Below are positions 13,633 to 48,200 of a stretch of DNA of 64,000 bases, one piece after another. Position numbers and translations under genes: made by a program. Position 1 is the stretch's first letter. Each line of letters opens with the position of its first letter. The DNA is taken from contig NC_043014.1 in the NCBI RefSeq assembly GCF_006345805.1, positions 37,200,001-37,264,000 of the forward strand. The letters are read 5' to 3'. Below the pieces are notes generated by a model. It was not told where the DNA came from. It saw only the letters and a list, made by a program, of their open reading frames with translations, and searched no databases. This DNA comes from Octopus sinensis. Taxonomy: Eukaryota.

Positions 13633-16600
13633 ATGGCACCAAAGTGGGAAAAGAAAGAATTAAATCTTTTGCTGAGAGTATAGACGATTGCTAGTGGCGA
13701 TCCGCCGAACAACATCACCACTGCCGCGCTAAAAAACAATGGATTTCATAGAACCATTAACCAGATAGAGCGGAAGAAAAGTGAGTTTATCCGGTCTTAC
13801 ATGTTTATAAGACCACACATCAAAACACTGGACAACATAATTGAAAATTATTGTGGCAAAGCTGATGAGGATGAAGAGGACGAAAAAGAGAAGGAAGCCG
13901 GAAGTCTCTGTGATCCAGGGGTTCCTCAGGAAAATGGATCACCTACCCCAGTGAACGACCAGGTAGTGAAGGATAGGGGAGCCAAGGGAGCAGAAACCGG
14001 AAACCCCCCTGTACCAGTGGTCCTACGAAGAAATGCAAAATTAGAAAAAAAGGAATGACCGTAAACAAAAAATAAGGAGGGAAAAGGAGGAAAAGGCAAA
14101 ACAGCCAAAGCTGAAAACCCAACCCACCACACAAACAGCAGAGAAACCCATGGAGGATCCAATGCCACCCAGTACACTTCAGGAAAGAAGAAATCTGGAA
14201 GGCACCAAAGAACCTGTAAGTTCTACCTGCGGGGCAAATGTTGGCATGGTGAGGACAGCAAAAACTGCCGGTTCACCCACCCAACACCCCGCCAGAACTT
14301 CAGGGGACTCAAAGAGAAAAACTTTACCGAGGGAACACAAGAAATGTCTCCCAGGAAAACTTTCAAAAACGAAGTGCGCTCCTCAGATGTTCTGCGCAAC
14401 GCAGCAGCTAAGCAAGAGTCTTTTTATGCATGGCACAAAGAATTGTCCGGCAGCTAACCTGGCTACACCAAGCACAGAGAAGGAACCCTGCACACCACTA
14501 TGCAAAACCACCACAGTCAACAGACACGGGATGGCCTCCCCTAACGCCTGCACAGCCATCACCCCAATACTTTTACTAAATATTGGGGGCCTGTTGCATC
14601 AAAATAGAAACAAAATTTCTTTCCTGAGAGATCTTACTGCATGCAATCAAGCCCTATGCATAGCACTTGTGGAAACTCACCTCAACCCTGATATAGGGGG
14701 CACAGAAGTACACATACCAAACTATGCCATACTGCGGACAAACAGAAAGGAAAGGAGCCATGGTGGAGTTGCTGTATACATCCGAGATGACCTCACACCC
14801 CAGGTCTTAACGACATACGGTATGTGACACTTTAATTGTATACATAAGACAACATAATATAATCATATGCACTACATATTGCCCATCGGATCCCCCAAAT
14901 CACACAGGCAAGTTTGAAGATTGCCTCACAAGAATTAAAGAAATCCTCATGAATCTGGAACACCACGTGACCATATTTCTTATGGGTGATTTCAACTTCC
15001 CAACATCAAATGGCCCGAAGGTCACATACTCTCAGGAATGATTCATTGCAAGCAAGTACACGTGGAGTCCCTGCTCAACCTCACCAATGCCTTATTCATG
15101 GAGCAAGTTGTACTTAAGCCAACTAGGGCGAATAACATTCTGGATCTCTGCTTCATGAACAATATGGACATCATTCATGATGTGAAAGTGACACCGACAT
15201 CAGTTTCGGATCACAACATAATAGAGCTGTCTATGTTTGGGCCAAAAGTAACCAGAGACATACAGCCTAAAGGAAGCACCCAAAATCTCTCCAATCTGAA
15301 CTTCCACAAAGCAGATTGGAAATCGATCCAAAAAGAGATCCTCAGAGAGGACTGGCCGGAATGTCTCTCCACACCAGACATTGACATGAAACTAGAATGT
15401 TTCATGTCTTCTGTGCAAGCCGTATGCCAGAAATATATCTCAGAGCACAAGTCCAAAACAAATAGGAGCAAGATTCCAAGAGACAGGAAGATCCTCATAA
15501 GACGACAGACGAAGTTTGCAAATCGTCTCAACCAACATCCCAAAAGTAACGAAATGTCCCACCTAAAAACAATACTGATGGAGATCGAAAAAAGGCTGCA
15601 ACAACCCTAACCCTAACCCTAACCCTAACCCTAACCCTTAACCCTAACCCTAACCCTAACCCTAACCCTAATCCTATGTGAAGGAGAAAGCAGACAAAGA
15701 AGCCTGGGTTATAAAAAACATTAAATCAAACCCAAAGGTCTTCTTTCATTGTGCGAAAGAAACAGTCTCAGTGCACTACAAGATAGGACCCCTCCTCCAT
15801 AAGGATGGCTCCCTCACAGACAGTCCAACTAAGATCAGTGAGATGCTGAATGACCAGTTCAAAAGTGTCTTTACCAGCCCGTTGGAACACAGACAAGTGA
15901 ACGAACCAGTGGACTCCTTTGCCGCCTTACCTATAACCAGCGAGGTGGTTACAATAGAATGTATTGACATTAGCGAGAAAGATGTCCTACTAGCCATAGA
16001 TGAAGTGGACACAAACTCAGCTGCTGGTTCAGATGGTTTCCCAGCCATCCTCCTCAAAGCGTGTAAGCATGCCCTGGCAAAACCCCTCCAGATTCTCTTC
16101 CAGAGCTTTCTTGCGAATGGCAAACTGCCAAGCAAGCTGAAGGAGGGAATAATATGCCCAATACATAAAGGGGGAAGTAGAGCAGATGCCAAAAACTATA
16201 GGCCTATCTCTCTGACTTCACACATCAGCAAGGTCATGGAAAGGATAGTTAGAAAGAAACTAATTGCATTCCTTGAGGAAAATAAGTTGTTGAGTGATAC
16301 CCAGCTCTTACAACATTATGACTGGGTGTTGAGGCAGTTACTCAACAAATCAAATGTGGACGTAATATCCCTTGATTTTGCAAAAGCTTTTGACAAGGTG
16401 GATCATGGTATGATATGCCACAAACTGCGTGACCTCGGCATAGCTGGAAAACTTGGAGTGTGGTTGCATGACTTCCTGAAAGATAGGAGTCAGGCAGTAG
16501 TGGTTAATGGAGCCACCTCTATGAACACACAAAATAGTGAGTGGTGTTCCACAGGGCACTGTCTTGGGACCACTGCTTTTATAGTGGCCTTCTCAGATAT

Positions 16601-27925: not shown

Positions 27926-30900
27926 CTGAAATGATAAATATACAAATTTTACATTATGATATTAATCAGAGGCACATCTAAAGCAATAAATATTCAATTA
28001 TAACAAACTATAATATTAATCTGTAACCCATCTGAATTGATAAATAAACAATTTTATGCCAGAATATTTAGTTAAAAAATTAAGAAAATGTGTAATTTGA
28101 GAGAAAATTGCAGTTAAAAAATCCTCATCATTATCATCACCATTTAACATCCACTTACCATGCTGGCATGGGTTGGACGGTTTGACATGGAGCTGGCTAG
28201 CAGGGAGCTGTCCTGATTCAAACTCTGTTGTGGCATGGTTTCTATGGCTGGAATCACTTCCTCATACCAACCACTTAAAAGAGTGTGCTGGGTGCCTTTT
28301 ACGTGCCACCAGCATGGGTGCAATTACACAGCACTGGCACAGGGGCATTAACACAGCACCAGGCACAGGTGCTTTTAAGTGACACTGGTAACTAAAACGA
28401 CAAGCCTGTATGTGTGGGAGATAGCAATTTTACTTAGCTTGACATATCTCATCAAGTACAGCAAATCACCACATCTCCCAGTCCCTTGTCATTTTCTCAG
28501 TGAGGTCCAACATCTGAACATCCTTTCTCAACACTTTGTCCCACGTCCTCCTTGATCTACTCCTTCCACAGGTACCCTCCACAATTAGAGCTTGGCACTT
28601 CTTTATGCAGCTATCCTCATCCATATGCATCACATGACACACAACATCTGATGCCTCTTAGACCCAATTTTCCTCTTAAATCATTCACACTCTGTCATGC
28701 ATGTACACTAATATTATCTTTCCAGCAGAACATGCTAGCTTCATTTCTTTCAAACCTTTGCAAGTCCCCTGTAGTCAAAGCCCATGTTTCACTGCCATGT
28801 AATATAGCTGTATGTACACAGGCAATATGTCTTTCACTCTGAGAGAACAGTCTTTAGTTAACAACAAAGGTAGAAGCTCTCTGAGCTTTGCCCAGCCCAT
28901 TCTTATCCTAGCAACTACTCTTTCAGAACTTCCTCCACCTCTCCTAACTTGGTCTCCTAGGTTACAGAAGCTATCTACTACTTCTAAGGATCCTACCAAT
29001 CATTTGAGAAAGTCTATTGTCTGCACATTTTCCGTGCTTATTGTACCTGCACATTTGCCACACACAAAAACTATAATCTCCATTAATCTTCCTGTGATAC
29101 TGCTACAACTTTTATGTGTCCAAAGCTTGCACTGGGTACAATGTATGGAGTTTCAATCAACACCCATCTTATATATTGGCAGAGCCATCTCCCAAAAGGG
29201 ATTTGTGATTTGTCTGTTTACTTACTTAGTAGGACATTGTTTTTTGCTAAATTAACCCTAAGGCCCTTAGATTCCATATCTTGTTTTCACATCTGAAATT
29301 TCTTCTCTAGGTCAGGTAGTGATTCAGCTACAAGAACAAGGTCATCAGTATAGAGGAGCACCCAGATAAATAGGAAGGGGCTGAGGACTGAGCATTGGCG
29401 AACTCCTACTTGTGCTCTAAATTCATCGCTATACTCATTGCTAACCTTCAGCTTACTGACAGCATCCCTGTACATGGCTTGTACCACTCTTACTAACCAC
29501 TCATCTATTCCTAGCTTCTGCATTGACCACCAGATAAGGGAGCAGGGGACCCTGTCAAAGGCTTTCTCCATACTGACAAAAGCCAGATACAGAGGTTTAT
29601 TTTTGGCAAAGTACTTCTCCTGCAGTTGCCTAACCAGGAATACAGCATCAGTCATGCTCCTGCCTGACACAAATCCAAACTGCATCTCATCTACACTTTC
29701 TTCCTAATTAATTGAGCTATGACCCTTTCTGTGTCTTTCATCACCTGGTCCAGCAATTTGATATGTCTGTAATTATTACTGTCTAAGGCATCACTTTTGC
29801 CTTTAAATAGCATGACTCCTTCATGGGCCATTAACTATACAGATAACTTGGCTATATCCTACTCTGGCAGATGGTGATACCTGATGGGCCAGGTGCTTTA
29901 CTTGTTTTCATATCTTTAATTGCTTTATCTACCAAGCTACTGTCTATTTCGATAACTGAACACCTCAGTTGGGTCTACAGTTAGCAAACTCTCCTCCTAT
30001 TCATTTTCTCCATTTAGCAGCCTTTCATAATGGCATTTCCAAGCCTCTTTCTTCGCAGAATCATTAAATTGCAAGTGAACCATTATCCATGCAGACACAT
30101 TTCTCTCCTATGACATCATGATTTTCTCTCACACACAGTCTTGCAATTCAAAACATTTCAAGTCTCTTCTCCTCATGTCACAGATCATTAGCAAACTTTT
30201 TCTTTTCTGCTTCTCCCCTGGCTAAATATACTTGTCTCCTAGCTTCCCTTCTAGCTATCAGATACAGTTCCCTGCTACCACCACATTTCCAGTCCTTCCA
30301 GGTCTGTTTCTTTTCTCTAATGGCCCTGATAACTACACTGTTCCACCACCATGTTGCCTTCTATAGTAAAGTTAGATATATCAATGTATTAGTATTTTAA
30401 GACATTTTTCATAATTAGATTGGTGTTACAAAAGGCACAAACCATGCCAAATCAGATTGGAACCTTATTATAACCTTATATATAACCTTATTAGTTTTTT
30501 GATTACGTCAAATTATATCCATAATACTTGAGATGTAAACTATGGACTAACATCCAAGATGTTTATATATATATGAGGCCATTAAGAATGAAATGTTTGA
30601 TTTCGAACTGAAAGTTTATTTTACTTTATCTCAACAAAAAGCAATGCAGCTAATCAAAGTATGCACGTAAATTATTAACACAATTTTGCCATTTTATCGG
30701 CAGCTTATTTATGCTGGCAGTGAAGAATTCTGGAGAGCAAGAGGTGATGAAACATGAAAGGCTGTTTTTGCGTCTTCTTCAGATTAAAAAATTTTTCTTT
30801 ACAAGAAGTTGTCTAATGCCTGGAAAACATAATAGTCAGTTGGTGCAAGGTCTGGTAAATATCACATGTAACAATACATTACAAAAATGGTTCTTTTATG

Positions 30901-32748
30901 TCATGACAGCAAAGAGCATCAAGTTTCAAGACAATGTATAATTCGATGCTCTTTCAGTTTGTGTGGTACTCACTTGTCCAGTTCCTTTGCCTTGCTGATT
31001 TGTTTCAGATGGCCCAATACAGTTGGAATCAAAAAATCAAATCTTGCTTCTAACTCAGGCATAGTTTGAGATGTATCCACTTGTACTACAGTTTCCAGCT
31101 CATCATTATCCACCTTGGTCTCAGGTCTACCAAGGGGCTGATTTTCAAGAGTAAATTCACCAGACTGGAACATTTCAAACCATCGATGTACAGTGCGCTC
31201 ATTCACCACATCTTCACCAAATACCTCATTGATGTTTCAAGCTGCCTGGAATGTATTGGTTCCATTTGGATGCATTGGAACTCATAAACAACATGAACTT
31301 TTGATCTATCCATGGGTTCACAAAAATTGATTTACAAGAGAAAACTCACAATATAATCAGACACCATTTCAGAAAGTGATGATGCAACTCTTTTCAAGTT
31401 ACATCATCAATGTTATAAAACAAAGTATTGTTAGGATAAAACATTAGAGTTAATGACTGTTAAACTCAGTGCATAAGAGAATCAGACATTTCATTCTTAA
31501 TGACCTGATAGTATGTTTGTAAGTGGAGGCACAATGGCCCAGTGGTTAGGGCCATGGACTCGCAGTCTTAGGATCGCAGTTTCGATTCCCAAACCAGGTA
31601 TTGTGAGTGTTTATTGAGCAAAAACACCTAAAGCTACACAAGGCTCCAGTAGGGGGTGGTGGTGAACCCTGCTGTACTCTTTCACCACAACATTCTCTCA
31701 CTCTTTCTTCTTGTTTCTGTTGTACCTGTATTTCAAAGGGCCAGCCTTGTCACATTCTGTGTCACGCTAAATCTCCCCAAGAACTACGTTAAGGGTGCAC
31801 ATGTCTGTGGAGTGCTCAGCCACTTGCACGTTAATTTCACGAGCAGGCTGTTCTGTGGATTGGATCAACTGGAACACTCGTCGTCATAACCGATGGAGAG
31901 CCAACCATGTTTGTAAACATTAAATGGTTACATTCACTTAATAAATAATTAATTTTAATGGATACTATATCAGTTTTGATAATTAGTATACCAGTTCAAT
32001 CAACTGCATTGAATTATAGTATTAAGCAGCTGCATATTGCCAAAGCACTAGTATCCTTAATGTAATCCTTAGGGAGACTCAGTATGATAATATATGTAAG
32101 TACATGAGTCTTCCAGAGTCACTTGCATCATTAATAAAATCTTCAGGCAGAATTAGTGTGGTGCAGTGTAATATGTATCAAAGCTAGTTCTCTGAATTAC
32201 AGTCCTTCTGATGGACTTCTATCCAATTTTCTGTCGACAAAATTCTTTTCACAAGGATTGAGTTAATCCAAGGCTCTGACAGAAGATATCTGTCCAAGGA
32301 ACTGCACAGTGGGACTGGATTTGGGACCTCATGATTGGGAAGTAAACTTCATAACCATTTAGCCATGTCAGCACTTACACACACACAACATTGATAACAA
32401 CAGCAGCAGCAATTTAGGTTTCATTAGAAGGTTGGGGAAGGAACAAGGTTTCTGAACGTTGTGATTGCTGACTTTTCAAATATAAATGATGTGGTTCAAC
32501 TCCAGGTCAATGGATAAGGTTTGAATACTCAACAGTTTTGAACATATAGTTGTTTAGGGACAATGGCAATAGATTTTTAAATTCTTCCTTCTTTACAAAT
32601 TTGGTTTTAATATCTAATTTTTGACTTCACCAACACTATTTCAAATGTATCTATAGTAGAAGATACATACAGCGGCACATTGGGCAAATGACTTCTACTA
32701 TAGCCTTGTGAGTGAATTTGGTAGACAGAAACTTGAAAGAAGCCCATC

Positions 32749-32795
<47 letters not shown>

Positions 32796-35700
32796 GATCC
32801 CTCATCTGGTGGTCAATGAGGAAACTAGGGATAGATGAATGGCTGGTGAGGGCTGTGCAAGCCATGTACAGAGATGCCGTAAGTAAGGTTAGAGTTGGCA
32901 GCATGTACACAGAAGAATTCAAGGTAGAGGTTGGGGTCCACCAGGGTTCAGTACTCAGCCCCCTCCTATTTATCATAGTCCTCCAGGCAATTGTGGAGGA
33001 ATTCAAGACAGGTTGCCCCTGGGAGCTCCTCTATGCTGACGACCTCGCTCTAATCGCTGAGTCACTATCAGAACTGGAGGAGAAGTTCCAGGTGTGGAAG
33101 GAGGGTTTAGAATCGAGGGGCCTTAGAGTCAACCTAGCTAAAACCAAAGTACTAATAAGTAGAAAGTTAGAAAATCCACAAATATCCTCAGGAAGATGGC
33201 CCTGCTCGATCTGTAGAAAAGGTGTAGGTAGAAACTCTATAAGATGTACCCAGTGTAAGCTATGGACACATAAGAGGTGCAGCAATGTCAAAGGTAGGCT
33301 AACTGGGAAGATAGTTTTTGTATGTGGCAGATGCTCTGGAGCATTGACCTCCGAAAATCTGCAGAAAACAACTTCCGTCACTTTCCGGGGGGAAAAACTA
33401 GAAGTAGTTGATAGCTTCCGCTATCTAGGTGACCAAGTCAGTAGTGGGGGCGGGTGCGCTGAAAGTGTAACTGCTAGAATAAGAATAGCCTGGGCAAAGT
33501 TTAGGGAGCTCTTACCTCTGCTGGTGACTAAAGGCCTCTCGCTCAGAGTAAAAGGCAGACTGTATGATGCATGTGTACGAACAGCTATGCTACATGGCAG
33601 TGAAACATGGGCCGTGACTGCTGAGGACATGCGTAAGCTTGTGAGGAACGAAGCCAGTATGCTCCGATGGATGTGTAATGTCAGTGTACTTACTCGACAG
33701 AGCGTTAGTACCTTGAGAGAAATGTTGTACCTAAGAAGCATCAGTTGTTGTGTGCAAGAGAGACGATTGCGCTGGTATGGTCATGTGGCGAGAATGGATG
33801 AAGATAGGTGTGTGAGAAAGTGCCAATCCCTAGCAGTTGAGGGAACCCGTGGAAGAGGTAGACCCAGGAAAACCTGGGACGAAGTGGTGAAGCACGACCT
33901 TCGGACGTTAGGTCTCACCATGGAAATGACTAGAGACCGAGACCTATGGAAGTATGCTGTGCGTGAGAAGACCCGGCAAGACTAGTGAAGCCATAATCCG
34001 TGGCCCCTACCTGGGACGTAGTCAGTCCACCTGTGCATACCTTCCTTCTTGTGACACTTGTGAAGACCTGTTGAGGCAAGTGAGAATCGAATCGAATCAA
34101 ATCAAATCAAATCGAACCAAATCAAAATAGATGAACATCAATGGAATTTGTATCCTTGTGGTACCAGTGCCGGTGGCACATAAGAAAACCATCCGAACGT
34201 GATCGTAGCCAGTACCGCAACGACTGGCCTCCGTGCTGAGGGCACGTAACAAACACCATCCAAGCGTGGCCGTCCGCCAGCCCCGTCTGGCACCTGTGTC
34301 GGTGACACATAAGAAAACACCATCCGAGCGTGGCCGTCAGCCAGCCTCGTCTGGCACCTGTGTCGGTGGCACATAAAAACACCATCCGAGCGTGGCCGTC
34401 TGCCAGCCTCGTCTGGCACCTGTGTCGGTGGCACATAAAATCACCCACTACACTCTCGGAGTGGTTGGCGTTAGGAAGGGCATCCAGCTGTAGAAACACT
34501 GCCAGATCTGACTGGCCTGGTGCAGCCTTCGGGCTTGCCAGACCCCAGTTGAACCGTCCAACCCATGCTAGCATGGAAAGCGGACGTTAAACGATGATGA
34601 TGATGATGATATATATATATACTAGCATTAAAGACCCATCGTTGCCGGGTCATAGTGCTAGTGCATGTATATATGTGTATATATATGTGTACATATTACA
34701 TGTACATCTATATATATACATCTACACATAAAATACAAAATACAAAGTTATATCTTGATATCGCTAGTGATAACAATACTCAAAATATATAACAGACTGG
34801 AATTGTTAGCCCGTCACTTGTAATTTCGATCAATTGTATCTTGTCCTCCCTCTTGTATAGAAGTGTGGCTACAATCCAGCCTACCTCTACTTCTGGGGGG
34901 ACATTTTTAATTTTTATCCGGGACATCCTATGTCCCAGATATAAAGGTAAAAATAAAATATTTCCACTTTACAAGTACGAGTCGAGTACTCCCTTGCACG
35001 CTCTGTTGACTCGAACCTTGCTTCTATTGTGGCGAATTTACCGCCTCTGATTAGATACCTTTCATAGTCGCACCAAGACACTTTTCGAAGGTGCTTTCCT
35101 CCATGTATTCAAATCTTTTTTCTCTACATTGTATACTTTATAGACAGTAGTCTTTTCTTTAATTTAATTTTTTATTATCCATCTGGACTATTCCATTTCT
35201 GCACGCTAATTTTATTTTTAATTTATTCTCATTCATGTGAAACCACTTATTCAAGTTCAAATCACTGATGCAAATTTATACCAATTGCTATTTTTACTTT
35301 TGTTATGTTACGATTATATTATACGTTAGTTTGATTTTAATTATTACTTACTACATATAATTCAATTATTATTATTATTTTTATTATTTAAGTGAAAGCA
35401 TCTGACATAAAATAGAGAAATGTTTTTGTTTCACTTTTAACACGTAATACTGAAATAGTGGAGAAGATATGATATTGCTATGGGCTCGCTCTAGGCAAGA
35501 ACTTGAACATTTGTTTTGCCCATGAAAGTACATGGACCCTAAGTAAGGCATGTGTAAAATTTGAATGGAATTGGTTGTGTAGTTCTCAAGTTTTAGGGAA
35601 ACACACAGACAGACAGAGAGACAGACAGACACATTCTCAGTTTTATATATATAAAGATAGATATATATGTGTGGGTGTGTGTGAGTTCTTTGTGTCTGTG

Positions 35701-38700
35701 TTTGTCCCCTTCCACTGCTTGACGACCAGTTTGGGTTTGTTTACAACCCTGTAACTTAGTGATTCAGCAAAAAAGGCTGATAGAATAAGTATTAGGTTTA
35801 ACCCTTTGGGATTTACATGATTCTGTCAAATGTAATGCTTTTCATTCACATTGCTTTGAATAAAGCTGCTTTATTTTGTAGCTTAGAGATTTTGATAATG
35901 TGATTGTATATTTTTAGAATGATATTGTAGGGTAAGTGTTAGAGGCAGGATCTAGCCAGTTTGAACATAAAACAGGTAGAATATTTGGGCCTGATATATC
36001 CAATTTAAATGCTAAAACGTAAAAAAAAAGTACTGGGGTTGTTACATTTGACTAAAATTCTTCAAGGTGGTGCCCTAGCATGGCCACAGTCTAATGACAG
36101 AAACAAGTAAAAGATAAAATTTTTGATTTTCCCAACACTATTTCAAATGTACCTTTGTGCAGGCATTGGGAAATTATGTTTTTTGTTTCTATGTTATATA
36201 AAACCTTGTCTTACAGTTCATTAACACTTTTGATAATAATCTGCATGTGACTGCTTCTGGTGTTCAATAACTGCTAACTTTCAGATTTTAAGTAGTCTAA
36301 ATTAAAGCTTTCTTCCATCAAAGTTTCATCTTATCATCATTTTCATTTAGCGTCCGCTTTCCATGCTGGCATGGGTTGGACGGTTCAACTGGGGTCTGGG
36401 AGGCCAGAAGGCTGCACCAGGCCCAATCTGATCTGGCAGTGTTTCTACGGCTGGATGCCCTTCCTAATGCCAACCACTCCGTGAGTGTAGTGGGTGCATT
36501 TTACGTAACAGACGGGGTTGGCAAACAGCAACGGTCGGATGGTGCTTTTTACGTGCCGCCGGCACGGGCACCAGGCGAGACTGATATAATTGATAACACT
36601 TACTACTACAGGAACAAGGCCTGAAATTTTGAAGGACAGGGCTAGTTGCTGAAGTGGTAAATATTTTATCAATCCTGAAAGGACGAAAGACAAAATTGAC
36701 CTCAATGGAATTTGAACTCAGAACATAAAGACAGAAGAAATGACACTAAGCATTTTGTCCAGTGTGCTAAAGATTTTGCCAGCTTGCTGCCCTAAACATC
36801 AGCTTAATAATGACAAAGTGATTTTACTAAATACTTCATTACTTTCAAAATTTACTGAAACAGAGGCAGCGCATTTCAACAGAAGTGTTGTAACAAAACG
36901 ATTAAAAATAACATACATTTTACATGTGAAATTCTGATAAGAACATAATCAACTAAGTTTATTACTCTTCCTGTTAGCAAAATCCAGAGAAATGATTGGA
37001 TATAAAATATCCCATTTTGAATCAAAACAAACACATCAATCAACATCATCTAATGAGACAGATAAACCTTCAAATATCTACTTACCAAACCTAGTTTTGC
37101 GAATCACAGTCTCTTTGCATTGACTACATTTTTTAATCTCTATCTTAGAGCAACATTCTTCACATATTGTCCTATGTCGGCAGGGGTGGAATTTTATAGA
37201 AACTTGATTATCTCCACATACATAACACTCATACCTGTAAAAGAAACACACACAGACTCACCAATAAAATCATCTGATAACAAATATTTCATTGAATATA
37301 AATGTAGAAAGAATATTTTTTATAATGTTACCATAAAATATCATTTGAAGAGAACATTTTAAATTATTATTAAACCTTTGGAGATGTAGCTAACTGATGC
37401 ACATTTTAAAACAAGACAGAATTATAAGATACGAAAACAATATCTAAATCTAATAAACACAGAAAAATGTATATATTTTCTTTACAGTGCAAAACAACAG
37501 ATTGACAGATCAGCCTAGTAATGGTGTTAAGAAATATTTTCTTTCAAAACACACACATGCTTGTTCGCACAGAGTTAATTATCCATGTACAACTAAAAAT
37601 AAAACATGGAGATTATATGAATATGAAGAGATTCTACAGTAATAATCCATTAAAATAATGGATTATAATGACTGACTGTGAGCAAGCTTGATAATTATTT
37701 GAGGTGTTGTGATTATGTGTAGAGCTAATTGAAATGTTTTACGCAATGAATGAATGGGTGAGTCATTGGTTAAAGGTTAAGCTACTATGTTTTTTCCATC
37801 ACTGAAACGTCAATCAAAACCTGTTTCGGCAGCAAGCAGATGTCTTCAACTTTGATATAATCATGAGCAATGACTTATGTCTTTGAAAATGCCTTTATAG
37901 TTCATTCTATTTGACTTTATCAGTCCATCAGTTTTAGCTATTACCCTCTGTTGTATCTTTTATGGATGGATGTTTAACTCTTTAGCATTTAGATTACTCT
38001 GTCAAATGTAGTGCTTATTTATTGATATTGTTTTGAATTAATCATAGCTTTGAGATGTTGATGATGTGGTTGTATACATTTAGAATGACAATATAGAGTA
38101 GATGTGAGAGGTTAGATCTAGCCAGTTTAAATATAAAACAAGCAGTACATTTTGACCAGATATGGCTGGTTTAAATGGGAAAGGGTTGAATACTCAAACT
38201 TTCATCACTGTTTCATTGTTGTCAGGTAAGAAAGGTATAAAGGCATACAGATAGCGAGCTACATACTGACTACTGTTTAGAGAAGAGACCAACATAGCAA
38301 TATACAGCAGAGGCAAAGTTATAGTATTAGCAGTAACAATCCACTGTATTTGTGGAAGTAAAAATCAACACATAATTATGCATAAAATATAAAATACAAA
38401 GCAACTTGCTGGTGTATTTAGCAATCATTAGGGAATACTTACACTTTTACAAGATATAGTTCCAGTCTCCTTTTCAAATCTGAATTCTTGATGATGTCAA
38501 GTGGTGTGGTGTTGTTTTTGTTTTTATGATAGAAGTTTGCTCCTTGTTTTGCCAGATATCCAGCTACAACTATACTGGACAATCTGTCTTCTTTGAGCTG
38601 ACAGGAAATCTATAATTGATGAAATATATATTTATATATACACCTGTGTCGGTGGCACATAAAAAACAACATCCGAGCGTGGCCGTCTGCCAGCCTCGTC

Positions 38701-41700
38701 TGGCACCTGTGTCGGTGGCACATAAAAAACAACATCCGAGCGTGGCCGTCTGCCAGCCTTGTCTGGCACCTGTGTCAGTGGCACATAAAAAACACCATCC
38801 GAGCGTGGCCGTCTGCCAGCCTCGTCTGGCACCTGTGTCGGTGGCACATAAAATAACCCACTACACTCTCGGAGTGGTTGGCATTAGGAAGGGCATCCAG
38901 CTGTAGAAACACTGCCAGATCTGACTGGCCTGGTGCAGCCTTCGGGCTTGCCAGACCCCAGTTGAACCGTCCAACCCATGCTAGCATGGAAAGCGAACGT
39001 TAAACGATGATGATGATGATGATGAATAAGACTATTTTTCAATATTCTTTTTCTTCGCCCAACACATTTTAGCGTCAACAAATTTTAGTTTTATTCAAGA
39101 AAATTCCAGTTATATTCTGAAGTGTCAAAGTAATATCAACAAGTCTGCCGTTGGTATGTTACAGTCTTAATCTATAGCACTCATTAGGTTACTTTTGGGA
39201 TTTAAAACTAACAAGGGCTGTGATGAAGTTTGAGAGAACCAGCTTATATCTAATTACTTCCATAATCTAAGAACAAAGTATTTGCATACGAATCAAGCAA
39301 ACTATGAAGCCAAATATTGATGAAGATATCAGAGATAACCAATTGATATGTTTATGTATGATAAACACAAGCAAATTTGAGAAGTAGAACTTGTTCTTTG
39401 AATGCTTTACAGTATGCATGAGGGGTTCCCAAAAGTAACTGGAAACATTCTCTATGGGCTGAGCCCATTGCAGTTCAGGCTTCTGCTACTAGATGCCACT
39501 TGATGCCACCTTCAGAAATCAGTCTACCAACCAGTGGTGTCATGTGAATTTATACCTCCATGTGGTGTGCCTTTGTTTTGCAGTGATTCTCTTCTGTTCA
39601 TCAATTTTTGCAATGGCTGAAACAAAGGAACAGCATGCTACCATGAAATTCTGTTTCCTGCTGGGGAAAACAGCAGCTGAAACAGTTGTCGTACTTCAAA
39701 CAGCTTACAAGGATGCTACCTTGAGCAAAACACAAGTTTATGAGTGGTTTTCACACTTTAGGAATGGTCATTTGTTGCTTGAAGACCAACCTTGTTCAGG
39801 GCGACCACAAACCTCTGGAATGAATGAAAACATCACAAAAATTTATGAACTGATCTTGGAGGACCATTACTGAACAATTTATGAACTTGATATGACTGGT
39901 GTATCCTGGAGCTCCTGCCAACAAATTTTGAACAAGGAATTGTGAATGAAATGAGTTACATCAAAATTTGTGCCTCGCTTGTTCACTGAATATCAAAAAA
40001 CAGTCATGACTGAATGGATGTCATGAACATTAAGAACAGTTGGATGTTGATCCAAATCTTTTTCTGAAGGTCAATATTGGTGACAAAAGCTGCTATGACT
40101 ACAACCCAGAAACAAAGCAACAATTAAGTCAATGGAAGCATTCAATGTCACCATACCTCAAAAAAGCACGTCAAGCAAAGTCCAATATCAAGACAATGTT
40201 GATTCGTTTCATTGATGTGAAAGGAATTGTCCACACAGAATTTGTTTCTCCCGGTCAAACTGCTAAGCAGACATTTTACTTGGCAGTTCTGAAGTGTCTG
40301 CAAGACACAGTAAGACAAAAACTCCCCAACCTGTGGCAAAAGTGGAGTGTGGTGGCTTTATCATGACAATGCACCTGCACACACTGTCTTGAGTGTGAGA
40401 CAGTTTTTGAAAAAATAGAATGACCTCGCTTATCCATCCTCTCTATTCACCTGATCTTGCTCCCTGTTCCTCCAAATAAAAAAGGTCCTGAAAGGAAAAC
40501 GTTTTGCAGATGTGGAAGAAGTGAAAAAAAAAAATACAACGGAGGCATTAAAAGGCATCACTTTGCAAGAGTTCATGGACTGCTTCAAACAGTGGAAAAA
40601 GAGGTGAGACATTAGTGTTACAGTGATGCACATCAAGAAGTTTCACTTGAGAAATTTTTAAACTGTTACTCTGATAGATAATTCTAGTAGCGCTATATAG
40701 GTGGCTGTTAAGATAGCTTACAAAATAGACATAGCAGCAGCAGCCACTACCATCACAGCAGCAGCCACAGTCTGATTTGACTTGGTTTCTAAGGCTGGAT
40801 GCCCTTCTTAATGCCAATCACTTTATAGTGTGTACTGTGTGCTTTTAACATGCCACTGACACAGGACTGTTACAGGCCAATCCTTTTCACCAGGGGATGC
40901 AGCAGCAGCCACTGCCTCCTCCTCCCCCTCCTCTTCTTCATATTCCTCCTCTCTATCCTCCCCACAAGATCTCTATGCCAATTACTCATCCCCTAACTGC
41001 ACTTTTATTTACTTTTTGTTTCCTCCTGATATAAGCTAAAAGATGATGTCTGGAAGACACACATGTCACAGCACACCTTTGATGCAAGTCTGATAAAGTG
41101 CTACTCTAATGTCTAAAACTACAAACATTACATAAATTTTGACTTTGAATTTTTGCATAAACTGGCATTGCAAGTAGAATTGGTACAGAAACAATTATAA
41201 TGAATCATTAAAGATGTGTTAAAGAATTTCTTGTCTTCTTATTACTTTGATTATAGTTTACTCTTCGCAAAACCGACACAAGGGTGCAACCATCGTGGAA
41301 CCAGGATTTTCTACACTTGAAGAATTTCAGCATTGGTTTGGAACCTGACAGTGTTGATAGCCCAGAATTTGGGGTACTTCTCTGGAAAAATCCTATCTTT
41401 ATACCCTACCAGGACCTAAGATATATATATATATATGTATATATCAGGGTGTGTCAATTTTAATAACTTACTAAAAATCTAATTTGGCAGTGAAATTATT
41501 GAGTCTTTTTACTCCCTGACTTGAGATATATATATACCAAAATGAATTAACACAACTCTAACTTACATCAATCTTATCCTAAATTTTCAATATGGTGTTG
41601 TTTTGAAACAATAACTTAAAATTTACAGGAAAAACTGATTAGACTCAAAATATCATTCTTATATTATCTTTTAATTGGTTAAATGAATCATATCATCTTT

Positions 41701-41922
41701 TAATTGGTTAGATGAATTTTTACTCTTTCAGATATTCCCAAGATGTCAACACTGAAGACTAGAGGCTTGATGTCATCCCACTTGAGCCTGTTAATTTGTA
41801 CATGGAAAGAGCTTCTTGTATCAGAGCTTCCAATAGTGAGAGATATTTTAAAACTTGGGTTACTACTTTGGGAATTCCAAGGATGAATTTTCCTATTTAC
41901 TCCCCAAAATTGACACACCCTA

Positions 41923-41970
<48 letters not shown>

Positions 41971-42169
41971 TTATAGAAGGAGCTTCTACAGGACTAGAAC
42001 TGTTTCATTCAAAAGAAATCATCAGGAAGCATCAGGAGCTTCCTGATGATTTCTTTTGAATGATACAGTTCTAGTCCTGTAGAAGCTCCTTCTATAAAAT
42101 AAATTAATTTACTCTGCTATGTATTGAGTACCTTATTTACTGTGGTTAACCCTGACTCAACCCGGGACC

Positions 42170-42207
<38 letters not shown>

Positions 42208-45200
42208 TGCAAATTGACTTGCATCAATCTTATTGAAGACACAGTATACAAATTCAATTTAGGACAGATTTTTACCATAAAAAAATCATTTGATATGTTC
42301 TTCAAAGAATTTAATATATGCTATTAAATGTGAAGGATGTAATGAAGATTACATAGGTCAAAGTTTACTCTCAGAAATAGACTGACCATTCACCACAAAA
42401 AATACGAGACCCCAGTACTAGACAGATTCCACTGAGTGGACACAGACATATGTGCAAAAAATAAGTCCCCCCAATTCCAAGTCTTCCCACTCTATCTTTG
42501 TTGAGTGAAGTTGTTTAGATCTAAACTTGATTGGTGGCATTACTTACTCTCCTATAATGTTGCTGCAAATTTTGATGTAACATTTTTCTACTGGATCAAA
42601 TCTCAATATTTTTATGCCAAAATATAGCTAGGGACCAGCCCTCTTTAAAAATGTTAACAGTTTTCAATTTGGTTAAGAACTGAATTAGCAACAAGCTCTG
42701 AAAGATGTTGCATGTGAGTAAATTGAGGCCTTAAGAATATTATTCAACTACTACTGTAGTTGAAAGGTATCTGTCTCACATAAAAAAAAAAAATTCTGAA
42801 ACTTACCTCATCTAAAATTTCAAGATGTTCACTTTCAGAGTGAAACATTTTCTCCCTCAATGCAATATGCAAGCAATTGTCACCATCTTTATTTATAGCG
42901 TCAACATCTGCTCCTTTTAATACTAACATCTGCATGATCCCAAGGTTACCCTTAGAAACAGCCTGGAGGAATGGTGTCTGATTATGAGTGTTACGAATAT
43001 CAAATTCCACTTCAGCCTTTGTGGAAATGAAAATAAAAAGTAAAAATATCAATGTATCATGAGTGTTTTTACTGGATATTTGATCAGACTGTTACTGTGG
43101 ATTTGATGTGGTCAATAAAACAAACCATTCATAGGTTGCACTGTAAGATGGTATGGATGTACATTAGAGACATGATAAATTTATGAAAATGACAAAAACA
43201 GGTTGTTTCAGGACAGTCTACTTTTATCCCTAGCTATATACCTAACTCACAGTAAGTTATAGACTATTTGAGCTAGAAAGAACAATTAATTAGCAAATGA
43301 AATCCATTGAAGAAGAATCATTTGTCCAATGTATACTTTTGATGTTGCTATATCATTAAATGATCCATAAAATTGCTTTGTTGGTTAGAGTCAATGTTAA
43401 AATGATACCTACTTAGATGTTATATATTTGTGTGTTTCATACATTCAATATATAAATTTGTGTGTTTAATATGTTAGTTAGTTAGTTAGTTAGTTAATTT
43501 GGCTCACTAACTAACTAACTAACATATTAACATTGAACTGCAAAAGATTTGCGAGACATGTATAACTGTGAAATATGCTTGAATTTCATTATGTCAGAGA
43601 TAAATTTTGATAAATCTGATAAAGTCAATTTCTTGGATACACTTTGACCACAGTCTATGGTTGTTATCATGTGTTCTGGTAGTGGGCGGATCCAGTACAT
43701 CAAGATTGTAGGGTGTGACATGTTCAATACTGTATATGCTCGCCCTGAGTATTCAAAATGGCCATACACCATTGGTACATGGAGTACATGAGGCAGTTCA
43801 CAAAACGCATTGGCATCTGTGCCCACTCCCTGAGGGAAGCTGCCTCCAGTTCCACATGAGTTGTCGGCCTTGGGAACACCTGATTCAGCCATCTCTGGAT
43901 TTCATCCCACAGGTGTTCAACTGGGTTCAAATCCGTGCTGAGAGCTGACCATTACATGGTTCAGATGTTGTATTGATGCAGGAAGTCCATGGTGACCCTG
44001 ACTACGTGGGAGGGAGCATTGTCCTGCTGGAACACGTGGTTATGGTGACGTACAAAGAAGGGCATGATGTTAGGTCTTAGGATGTGGTCAACGTAGTGCT
44101 GCGCTGTGATGTGCACCAACATTTTGGAACTCATGGGGCCCAATTCTCTGATTTAGGCCTATAGTATCGCAAACCATGATGTTATGGCCACCCCACGTCT
44201 CCCTCCATGGCACATGCATCTCTGTAGCATTCACTCCTCCTACACCACACCCTCACTCTGCCATCTGAGGTGGAAATGCAGTACCAGCTCTTGTCAGAGA
44301 AGACTATCAACCTCCATTGTTGATGCTACAAATGTCAGTGCTGTGTAGCCCACTGTAATAGTGCCTGATGGTGGCAGGTGGTGAGGACAGGCCCTAGAGC
44401 AGGATGATGGCAACACAGGTTGTTGGTAACCAGCCAATGTCATACCGTGTCATGGCTGATGGGTTGCTGTCTAGTGCTGTCATGCTGGCTAGTCTGAAGA
44501 GATCATGGAGATGTTGCAGGTGGATGAAGCAGTCCTGCCTGGGTGTGGTCACCTGGGGGTGCCCTCTGCAGGCACAGTCTGCAGTACTATTGGTGTTTTA
44601 TTGCTGTTGCAAGCAATAGATGGTACTGACATGAACAGTGTAAGCTTTCGCAACAACTAGGGCATGCTACCCTGCTTGCAATCAGCTGATAGCTTGTTCT
44701 CTCTGTGCTGCTAACTGGGTCATCCCTGATGTGTCCAAATTACGAATGTCAAGAACATGGTTCAAGTTGATTTTTATACCCATAACCTTCACAAGGTGCA
44801 CATGCATTTCGGTTTTCATGACAATTATTTGCGACTGCCACCCATGGCATTCGGCATCTCATTTCACGGAAAATTGAAAGATTACCTGTAATTTGGGTCT
44901 CAGTCATAAAGGAGCATGTCTTGGAATATTTACACTTACATCCCCAAAATAAATTTTCAGAATCTACCATATAAAAATGACATTTGAAAAAATTGCATTT
45001 CTTTTGCAGTTCAATGTATAGGAGTGTTAATATATTTGATATATATTGGTGTGTTAATACATTTAAAAAAAGTGTGATTAATGTTTCTGATATATACTAA
45101 CACAAAATAATGTAATACATTTTCATTAATTTGAAAGTGATCTTGTATATGTGTTGCATAATGAGACTATTAAAGATGGAACAGTTGACATAAGTACTTT

Positions 45201-48200
45201 GACTGGCTATTATTGCCACTGCCAACACACTCAACATCACTGCTATCATCATCATCATCACTATCATGATCATCATATTCCTCTAAAGACACAAGACTTG
45301 GCATTTTAGTAGGTGGTGTATAGTGAATGAAATCAACCCCAGTATTTCACTGGTACTCTGATGATGATGATGATGAGAATATTGAACAGAATGATGAGAT
45401 CAATAAAATACTAAGGTAAGGTAAAGACCCCCTTCGGTCATGAATGACCATGGGATTGCACCTAGAAAGTTACCCTCCTAGACACAAGTCCGGGCAAGGT
45501 TGTTTATGGAAGACCTGCAGTCGCCCATGCATACCAGCCTCCCCTCTCCACGCCACCAGTGTTATCCAAAGGAAAGACAAAGGTCGATACAGCTTGGCAC
45601 CTGTGACGTCGCAACTCATTTCTACAGCTGAGTGAACTGGAGCAGAGTGAAAATAAAGTGCTTTGCTCAAGAACACAACACGCAGCCCAGACCGGGATTC
45701 GAGCTCACAATCTTCCGATCGCAAGCTCGACGCTCTAACCACTGAGCCATGCGCCTTCACAATAAAATACTACACTGTGAATAATATATGTTAACTAACC
45801 TGGGATAGTATCACTTTCACTATCTCTTGGTGTTGCCTGAAATTATAAAAGGGAAAATAAAAATAATACAAACATCACAAAGATTGAATTAATCAATAAT
45901 TAGATCTTCAATTAAGGAAAACAAATGTAAATACAGGTGTAATGAGACCCTGACTGAGATTTGAACCATAGATCTGATTTTCCCTGTCAAGAACTATGAA
46001 CGGATATATTTTCATAAAAGGAAAAGTGCTGCTGTAAAAGTTAATAATGCCCATGTAAATATGGCTTGACCAATCAGCACTGGCTGACTTTTTATAGCTG
46101 AGGTGACAATTTTCAAAAGAAGTATTCAAGTTTTTTCTGCAAAACTGAAGATTCTAGAGCTGCTAAGCCTTCCAGGGAAATTTACATTGCTTGTCTAACA
46201 AAACTGTTTTGTCTCTTCTCTTTCATTTCTAAGTAACATGCTTACACCATAGTTGATGAAAGCTAACCTTTACTTGTAGTGTCAGTAATACATACTAATT
46301 ATATGCCATGATTAATTTCCTTGTATTATCTTCATTACATCATCCTGCAGGTTATATATAGAAGATTCCTAACTGTTATGTTCACTGAACATTGATCCAG
46401 TAATTTATTGACTGTACGTGAGTAAATATAATAATGCTCATTAATAAAATATTTTAAAAAATTTTAATTTTAGTAAGATCATTGTCTATACCCTTTTTAA
46501 CTTGTGAATGGCCAACAAAGAATATATGGCAAATTGCCACACTAAGCAGGTATTCCTAGCATAAAGGTGAAAACCTTGCAGTGATGTGAAGTTCCATAAA
46601 ACAAAACTAATTTTTCCCATTTACTTGCCTGTTACACAGAAGTCAATGGACATGCAACCAATGGGAAAATAAGTTTTGTGTCATGGAACTGTACATTACA
46701 GATAAATTTTCAAGAGGAAGTGCAGCATATTTGCATGTGTGTGTATGTCTGTATGTGTGTGTTTATATCGCTTACATTATATATGTGCATATGGGGGTGG
46801 AGGCAGTTATATTAAGTTGTCTCCTTTGTTGCATATATATACATATATATGTATAAATGACATCCTCACCAGGTATGAATGTTTCTTTAAAAAAAAAACT
46901 CAAAAAAACTATAGCAACATAGAATTGTTTTTCCAGGTGTTCAATCATTCTGCTTGTTAATATATCAGAAGAAAATGAAATGCTAGCACATACCACGTAT
47001 ACTCATTGTTGTGTTACTTCAATTAACACGTAAGATTACAATATTACAAAAATTGTAAAAAAATTTTAATTAGAGCTCCAGAGCAGAGAACAGAAATAAG
47101 GCTGCAAAATTCAAGCACAGGAAGAAATGTTATAAAATATTTTGTCCAGTAAGGGAATAATTCTGTTGGCTTACTACTACTACTGCTGCTGTTGCTGTTG
47201 CTGTTGAGCGAACGGTCTTTGTCCCAGGGCTCACAAGATGGGAAAAGTCCAAAATGTGGTCCTTTGCTATTCGTAAGACTCGCAAAAGAGAAAGCAGGTC
47301 AACCCCCGACACCGAGAGCATTGATGGATGGATGAATGCGCATCCAGGCTCAGCGGCTGCAAAGGAAATTGGTGGACAAGAAACAGGAAGAAAGAGTGAG
47401 AGAAAGTTGGGGTGAAAGAGTACAACAGTGGTCGCCACCACCCCCTGCCAGAGCCTTCGTGGAACTTTAGGTGTTTTCACTCAATAAACACACACAATGC
47501 CCAGTCTAGGAATCGAAACCCCGATCCTCTGACTGTGAGTCAGCTGCCCTAACCACTGAGCCATTGCGCCTCCACTTGCTGCTGCTGCTGCTGCTACTAC
47601 TACTACTACAGAAAATCTGCTTGCCCTTCCCACCCAAAGGAAAGTTGAAGGCTAATCTTCAAAAACAACAACAACAATGGCTTCCAATTTTGACACAAGG
47701 CCAGCAATTTTAGAGGGAAGGAGTTAGTTGATTACATCAATTCCAGTACTTGACTGGTACTTTATTTTACTGACCTAGAAATAATGAAAGGCAAGTGACT
47801 TCAGTGAAACTTGAACTTTGAACAATAATAATCATAATTTCTAGCTTAGACACAAGAATAGGAAAAAAGTAGAGCACAGCTTTCTGAATTAACCCCTTAA
47901 CTTTACTGGAATAAATTTCTATTGACCCCTTAAAATGACAATTCCTGGTAGGAATTTAACTTGAAACAATGTGACAACAGTTAATACTCTTAAGTATATA
48001 ATTCTGAAGGTGACTGTTCCAGGGATTGGTAATGGTGGTGACAATGATGATGATAAGGATGAAAGTGGTAGTGATGATGATGATGATGATGATTTCTTAA
48101 TGAAGTAGATTTAAGAGTGAGGCCCCATAGTGGAATGATGGCATTAAGTGATTTGTTAAAAATTAAAATTTTGGCAAAACAGAAAAATAAAAGAGAACCA

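Follow-up and report, generated by a model that had tools for sequence, protein, structure and literature searches.

The palindrome that lies between two (TA)n runs of the window (the whole 64,000-nt stretch of Octopus sinensis DNA analysed here) is probably the shortest product left by insertion of an ORF-bearing Penelope-like element (PLE) of the Hydra clade, made from twin cDNAs that ran off the end of a capped and uncleaved sense RNA. As reconstructed from sequence comparison, this capped, uncleaved RNA would start at the ribozyme of the element. One cDNA would be primed on each strand of the (TA)n tract, at the two internal sites where reverse transcription of the element starts, and both would run off the RNA 5' end after copying its first 70-135 bases, the hammerhead motif included. 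Joined head to head, they would constitute a palindromic stump that lacks the TATA box and the ORF and would likely be a dead end.

The formation of the inverted pLTR and tail of PLEs, and the strand of their RNA template, are stated as open questions in PMC3846280, PMC8557442 and PMC11167929. The ~1,000 junctions that share one base, taken with the TATA box at -29 and the G that resembles a cap, constitute a direct and testable in vivo argument that the template is sense, capped and uncleaved, and that priming is twin.

Anatomy of the palindrome

The palindrome is built as the first-pass annotation had described it, with two arms of 69 nt (41962-42030 and 42038-42106), one mismatch and a 7-nt spacer, set between a left (TA)n run (41924..41963) and a right (AT)n run (42173..42208), both of which are target tract. 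The inverted arm without tail (41962..42030, minus strand) ends in an AT-rich internal priming site. Its hammerhead motif, as read from the sequence, retains an intact core: on the minus strand, helix I is formed by 42030-42026 and 41986-41982, the core occupies 42025-42019 and GAAA 42006-42003, and cleavage is predicted between 41987 and 41986. The tail-side arm (42037..42106, plus strand) would, by comparison with parent elements, start at RNA +1 (A 42037, the first base of helix I); its core is located at 42043-42049 and its predicted cut lies between 42081 and 42082. The only arm mismatch falls, as had been noted, in the core of this plus copy: it is A14->T at 42064, a private mutation common to the locus and its duplicate (L002), on account of which the plus arm fails the hammerhead core (A14U). 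The 66-nt PLE 'tail' that follows (42107..42172, plus strand) is identified by comparison with ORF-bearing copies as the start of the parent 5' UTR. The junction between the arms (42031..42036, plus strand) consists of 6 nt that repeat the partner arm, the last of them a G at -1, and likely represents a short snap-back extension of a cap-extended cDNA end. (Several cDNA ends in the family have A, not T, opposite the putative +1 base, in the window at 42026-42032 and also in L273, L280, L285 and L290; this could be a misreading of a modified cap-adjacent A.)

The type I hammerhead core (CUGANGA / GAAA / UH) with helices I-III is present in the minus arm and in the parents, and the hammerhead parts of each arm read on both strands as annotated, with one reservation: the GCTTC/GAAGC part of stem I stands, and its 9-bp extension on the plus strand does not, being a product of the junction (helix I of the ORF-bearing parents is 6 bp). 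Helix II is 3 bp long and closed by U.U; a G10.1-C11.1 pair is absent. Helices I-III are invariant within the family, and subfamily differences are confined to N7 and loop II; in other PLE families of the genome the core is kept and the stems are wholly different (8/8 loci). A covariance-model search had been proposed as a check on the ribozyme, and gave no hammerhead match: Rfam yielded nothing at the gathering threshold for the whole window and, at E<=10 in 41700-42500, 49 matches, none of them to a hammerhead model; what it did return were sub-threshold miRNA matches driven by the hairpin. The hammerhead itself is marginal as modelled, in the sense that the predicted energy of the isolated arm folded as a hammerhead is -5.7 kcal/mol against an MFE of -6.0 kcal/mol, and that the predicted pairing probability of helix I in a parent's first 142 nt is ~0.05. 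Low or protein-assisted activity has been reported for PLE hammerheads, and the marginal predicted fold is consistent with it.

The parent element

The window's plus arm and tail match the pLTR of ORF-bearing elements at 132-133 of 136 nt (L124, L125, L127) or 128-130 of 136 nt (L126, L128), which provides the linkage to a full PLE that had been sought. Four of these copies (L124, L125, L126, L128) share a layout of hammerhead, tail, ORF, microsatellite 3' region, hammerhead and tail extending over ~6 kb; each has a stop or frameshift, so that no copy among these four is intact. The tail of the parent is its leader; in 13 exact matches it continues via ATAT and on to the ORF. Opposite-strand arm pairs, in the first 100 listed matches to a 32-nt core, lie anywhere from 4 bp to 6.4 kb apart and form a continuum, and the longer-spaced pairs contain reverse transcriptase (RT) and endonuclease pieces and the microsatellite-rich region. 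Two further loci entertained as longer family members (L014, L023) were rejected, their flanks being unrelated.

The single ORF joins RT to a C-terminal GIY-YIG endonuclease (YRDD and VY...YIG...RY motifs, identified by eye in the natural ORFs of L092, L095 and L097). A CxCX5C linker, DKT, RWR (not RWK), and CxxC and CxH flanking E and N are present, and CCHH is absent. The ORF has 802 homologues at ~40% identity; a Pfam scan and a PDB sequence search with it returned no named family. Insertion into (TA)n, pLTR, inverted copy and tail are all present in the family. Placed by its ORF motifs against the clade definition in PMC8557442, the parent is best regarded as a new Hydra-clade Penelope-like family. 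The suggested PLE pLTR origin and (TA)n targeting of the insertion are borne out by the identity of arm and tail to ORF-bearing copies and by an empty TA site (described below).

The parent 3' region, 2-4 kb of microsatellite-like (TA/CA/TG) sequence, is found in every long copy (L124-L131). The genome also holds at least 3 further PLE families (L132-L139; ~48% ORF identity) with type I hammerheads located by a relaxed motif scan; several of these have a long branched helix II and inverted copies.

A family of stumps

In the 2.72 Gb of genome searched, exact matches to the 32-nt core number 1,664 (0 for the control), in agreement with the expectation of many genomic copies that keep the core. 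A looser pattern collects 4,527 arms into the family; of the 100 listed, 65 have A at N7. The first base of helix I is the fold-back point, with <=13 nt between cores, in 512 cases with U7 and 494 with A7, or ~1,000; 514 U7 arms retain the upstream body. Fold-backs at the second AGCT, beside the cleavage site, number only 16, and helix-I mirror jumps account for 11 copies. Set against ~1,000 fold-backs, these numbers imply that neither AGCT microhomology nor ribozyme cutting alone fixes the junction point. Ribozyme-cut RNA as the main template (16 versus 1,006 fold-backs) and a helix-I mirror snap-back as the main route (the 11 copies only) were accordingly rejected.

Stump structure was analysed in 46 of the first 50 U7 fold-back loci (4 left out), which constitute a non-random sample. 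The tail arm ends in (AT)4 in 43/46, and 44/46 of the arms without full tail reach (AT)4 within 30 nt of helix I. By loop II, 24 stumps are TT, 11 AT and 5 TC, with 6 gapped or mutated; the two arms agree in subfamily in 40/46, and the remaining 6 have gaps or single mutations. The centres fall into 19 classes in the 46 loci (with the caveat that centres of perfect palindromes may change after insertion or be mis-sequenced), and there are ~30 left-end variants. The window's exact centre recurs only in its segmental duplicate among the 30 best matches. Stumps have neither TATA box (the promoter is excluded) nor ORF. What these features indicate is that stumps are produced repeatedly from each parent subfamily, and not from one short master.

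Compound insertions (L072/L119, L111, L112, L117) join the run-off end at helix I to ORF-start pieces and a second hammerhead-tail unit, and are taken to reflect template jumps from the RNA 5' end.

The template RNA's 5' end

In 64 of 73 promoter-bearing parent arms, TATAAAT begins 29 nt upstream of the base that opens helix I, a conservation that is partly circular since these arms were picked with a motif including TATAAAT. At -1, parent arms have T, A or C (90/90) and never G (0/90), and non-parent, non-perfect junctions have G in 71/77, a G that could derive from the partner arm in 56 of those 71. Genome-wide there are 201 T[AG] junctions, with 93 TG and 7 TA among the 100 listed. GA and CA contexts are commoner, so that single mutation alone should favor TA; the observed excess of TG is the opposite. 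Inspection of 24 TG contexts by eye found 12 in which neither partner nor target supplies the G, and 12 that are explicable by the partner arm. The extra G directly abuts (TA)n in L281 and L296, and in L030 and L262 it is present in both arms. In full-length L1 insertions, an extra G marks the copied cap (PMC11702581).

From the TATA box at -29 together with the extra G, we infer that the template is a sense RNA, capped and with its start at the hammerhead. It can quite confidently be proposed that transcription begins with the first base of helix I, and the G at -1 is probably a copied cap. The arrangement is not a clade-wide rule: related families (L132-L139) have no clear TATA at the corresponding place, although hammerheads are present in 8/8 loci. 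The Penelope element of D. virilis has a TATA-less internal promoter (PMC2377424) and an intron that ends at helix I (PMC4209133), which again implies that the TATA/hammerhead-start arrangement is not general.

Two probable priming events and the alternatives to them

The two ends are, here, an AT-rich site 10-25 nt past the cut site and ATAT 66 nt further on. In vitro, a PLE protein nicks and extends both target strands, two internal starts define the tail, and uncleaved RNA is used (PMC11167929). In 9/30 loci the tail-less arm carries a hammerhead that the tail arm never reached; one snap-back cannot yield a tail-less arm with sequence absent from the tail arm. At L171 (G000:C1:76371810-76372490), one arm has six sense-strand A>G changes and the other none, and it looks like ADAR-edited RNA copied into the genome. 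(The stumps in general have no A>G excess: 9 A>G in all, versus 16 T>C, in 92 arms, with one clustered arm only.) Judged on these sequences, the arms on balance reflect two priming events rather than one snap-back.

On the other hand, no locus has arms of two subfamilies (40 readable pairs, with 0 clean mismatches), and private variants are common to both arms in L176, L180 and L187. The two cDNAs would thus derive from a single source locus, unless snap-back or conversion gave rise to some of the loci; the concordance and the private variants are more simply accounted for by one snap-back or by gene conversion than by two RNAs. The same parent and the same RNA end would then be used, but one tail-primed cDNA would snap back and be copied to the AT-rich site (or antisense RNA would prime itself). 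The 7-nt and slipped centres look like snap-back, which has been seen after full-length cDNA synthesis with R2 proteins (PMC11371274), and self-priming on an antisense template has been proposed for A. vaga (PMC3846280). Such an origin is nevertheless rather unlikely for the family as a whole, in view of the 9/30 loci, of L030 and L262 with their extra G in both arms, of L171, the arms of which differ by A>G only, and of asymmetric centres that are evenly divided between the two directions (5 each way in the oriented one-tail loci). That the boundary at helix I marks a stalled RT or a splice acceptor, and not a transcription start, is very unlikely, although it follows a pyrimidine tract and reads YAG|C, like a 3' splice site, the Penelope intron does end at helix I (PMC4209133), and completed helix I lets cDNA mis-pair (the 11 mirror jumps): a spliced RNA would run on into an upstream exon, of which there is none in the junctions examined, and a stalled RT would add no extra G. 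Contigs of runs X1, X3, X5 and X6 likewise yielded no joints and no peaks of starts or ends, features that contigs are not suited to reveal.

Two readings of the palindrome as an entity in its own right had been put forward in the first-pass annotation, and neither is supported. A distinct, non-autonomous mini-retroelement (retrozyme- or SINE-like), amplifying itself from stump transcripts mobilised in trans, would account for ~1,000 stumps of near-fixed size, and non-autonomous PLE derivatives and retrozymes do exist (PMC8557442; bioRxiv 10.64898/2026.07.22.740005). However, the stumps mirror each autonomous subfamily and vary in centre and ends as described above, the window's exact centre is confined to its duplicate, and no internal promoter is present. 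The short master, fixed ends and own promoter of a MITE/SINE-like family are lacking, and stumps are single head-to-head units in place of the tandem head-to-tail hammerhead units of non-LTR retrozymes. An independent mini-element is thus improbable. Less probable still is that the palindrome was co-opted as a conformational switch by which the host pre-mRNA would cleave itself within the intron. Such a switch has in its favor the intact core of the host-sense arm and the location of that arm in an intron, but any stump has one arm per sense, and the hammerhead fold lies ~70.7 kcal/mol above the hairpin in host-sense RNA (predicted with the core held unpaired). In addition, the antisense partner strand is transcribed first, the hammerhead is weak even in isolation, and the insertion is recent and absent from a paralogous intron (L299).

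Relation to other elements

The origin from twin cDNAs that is preferred here can be compared with what has been described for other PLEs. With C-terminal-endonuclease (EN+) PLEs of the Hydra clade (Craig et al. 2021, PMC8557442), the parent has in common the C-terminal GIY-YIG, the CxCX5C linker, DKT, RW(K/R) and no CCHH, as well as CxxC and CxH around E/N, (TA)n targeting and a type I hammerhead. U.U at the base of helix II is found here and in most Hydra hammerheads of File S2 of that paper. Hydra-1_Obim of Octopus bimaculoides is, by eye, a different family, with another N-terminus and hammerhead (PMC8557442). Described Hydra elements are <3 kb (PMC8557442) in contrast with the ~6-kb parent and its microsatellite-rich 3' region, and, also unlike them, the family has an 8-nt helix III loop and ~1,000 minimal fold-backs.

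The standard PLE unit (a pLTR, an adjacent inverted 5'-truncated copy and a one-sided tail; PMC8557442, PMC3846280) has the same head-to-head arms, palindromic junction and tail on one side. It differs in that the stump is reduced to hammerhead and tail, in that the tail is 66 nt as against 30-40, and in that the junction is here confined to a single base and has an additional G. The inverted pLTR, tail and palindromic junction were described in PMC3846280 together with putative TATA/Inr elements in pLTRs, antisense self-priming being favored there; the G evidence favors a sense template here. Anolis Poseidon PAc in vitro (Frangieh et al. 2024, PMC11167929) has the same two RT starts bracketing the tail, with both strands extended, uncleaved RNA and AT-rich targets; what distinguishes the octopus family is TA microhomology at both ends, starts in the 5' leader before the ORF, and a joined product in vivo. 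Metazoan PLE hammerheads and non-LTR retrozymes (PMC4209133; PMC7229834; bioRxiv 10.64898/2026.07.22.740005) share the type I pLTR hammerhead, many dispersed copies and some opposite-strand pairs, but here there are no tandem head-to-tail units, no G10.1-C11.1 and no sign of own amplification.

The anatomy of inverted pLTR plus tail is, then, already published. Evidence from TATA and cap G for a sense, capped, twin-primed template was not found in print: a literature search, with Repbase, subscription papers and some supplements outside its reach, found no report of a cap G or of a TATA-defined start at a PLE hammerhead.

An mRNA capped at the first base of the hammerhead suggests one further, distinctly tentative, idea. 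The ribozyme would be a self-decapping switch placed 45 nt behind the cap; uncut RNA would be translated and would yield stumps, and double cutting at the pLTRs would free a unit-length (possibly circular) RNA templating long copies that regenerate the promoter. If so, stumps would be an in vivo record of the PLE replication cycle, and ~1,000 perfect hairpins of 60-70 bp would have been seeded for ADAR or small-RNA pathways.

The host intron

The insertion lies in a GT-AG intron (42806-38610, minus strand) of an ankyrin-RING gene, which we take to be Mind bomb-like. An ankyrin exon (43016-42807) precedes this intron and a 167-nt exon (38609-38443) follows it, both on the minus strand; the RING exon of the same minus-strand gene starts from 37234. 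The exon frames are in phase, which upholds the earlier assignment of the palindrome to an intron, with its minus copy in host-sense orientation. A 17.6-kb inverted duplicate at 99.0% (window 29463-47005 versus G000:C18:37193688-37176121) carries an identical element. In a third paralogue (L299; 95-97% identity) the element is absent and the insertion site is a 13-nt TA run only, as compared with TA tracts of 40 + 36 nt at the filled site; the tract may have grown during insertion, through primer slippage, or later. That third copy is near C18:37342065, and further paralogues make up a local cluster of ankyrin-RING genes. An assembly artefact as the source of the palindrome is excluded by the duplicate, by the empty site, and by the junction also being present in other sequencing runs (X3 and X6, where it appears in loose contig ends).

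By comparison of these paralogues, the window locus is a recent insertion. The existence of a paralogue without the element implies that host function does not require it, and the single locus is likely an ordinary and inert insertion. The minus-strand RNA of 41962-42172 is predicted to fold at -122 kcal/mol (z = -21; 0/200 shuffles as good), and what is predicted for the host pre-mRNA is a 69-bp hairpin, not a ribozyme. Double-stranded RNA is a more likely fate for it than a switch. (Contigs of X3 and X5, which are presumed RNA runs, have loose ends rich in A>G, a weak hint of such a fate at most.)

A MITE-like element of ~480 bp, with terminal inverted repeats and TA flanks (41445-41923), adjoins the target tract on its left and is also present in the empty paralogue. 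The same intron holds a degenerate transposase remnant (39493-40620), presumably Tc1/mariner-like from its translation. Elsewhere in the window, 12 copies of AACCCT form an interstitial telomere-type repeat (15603-15676).
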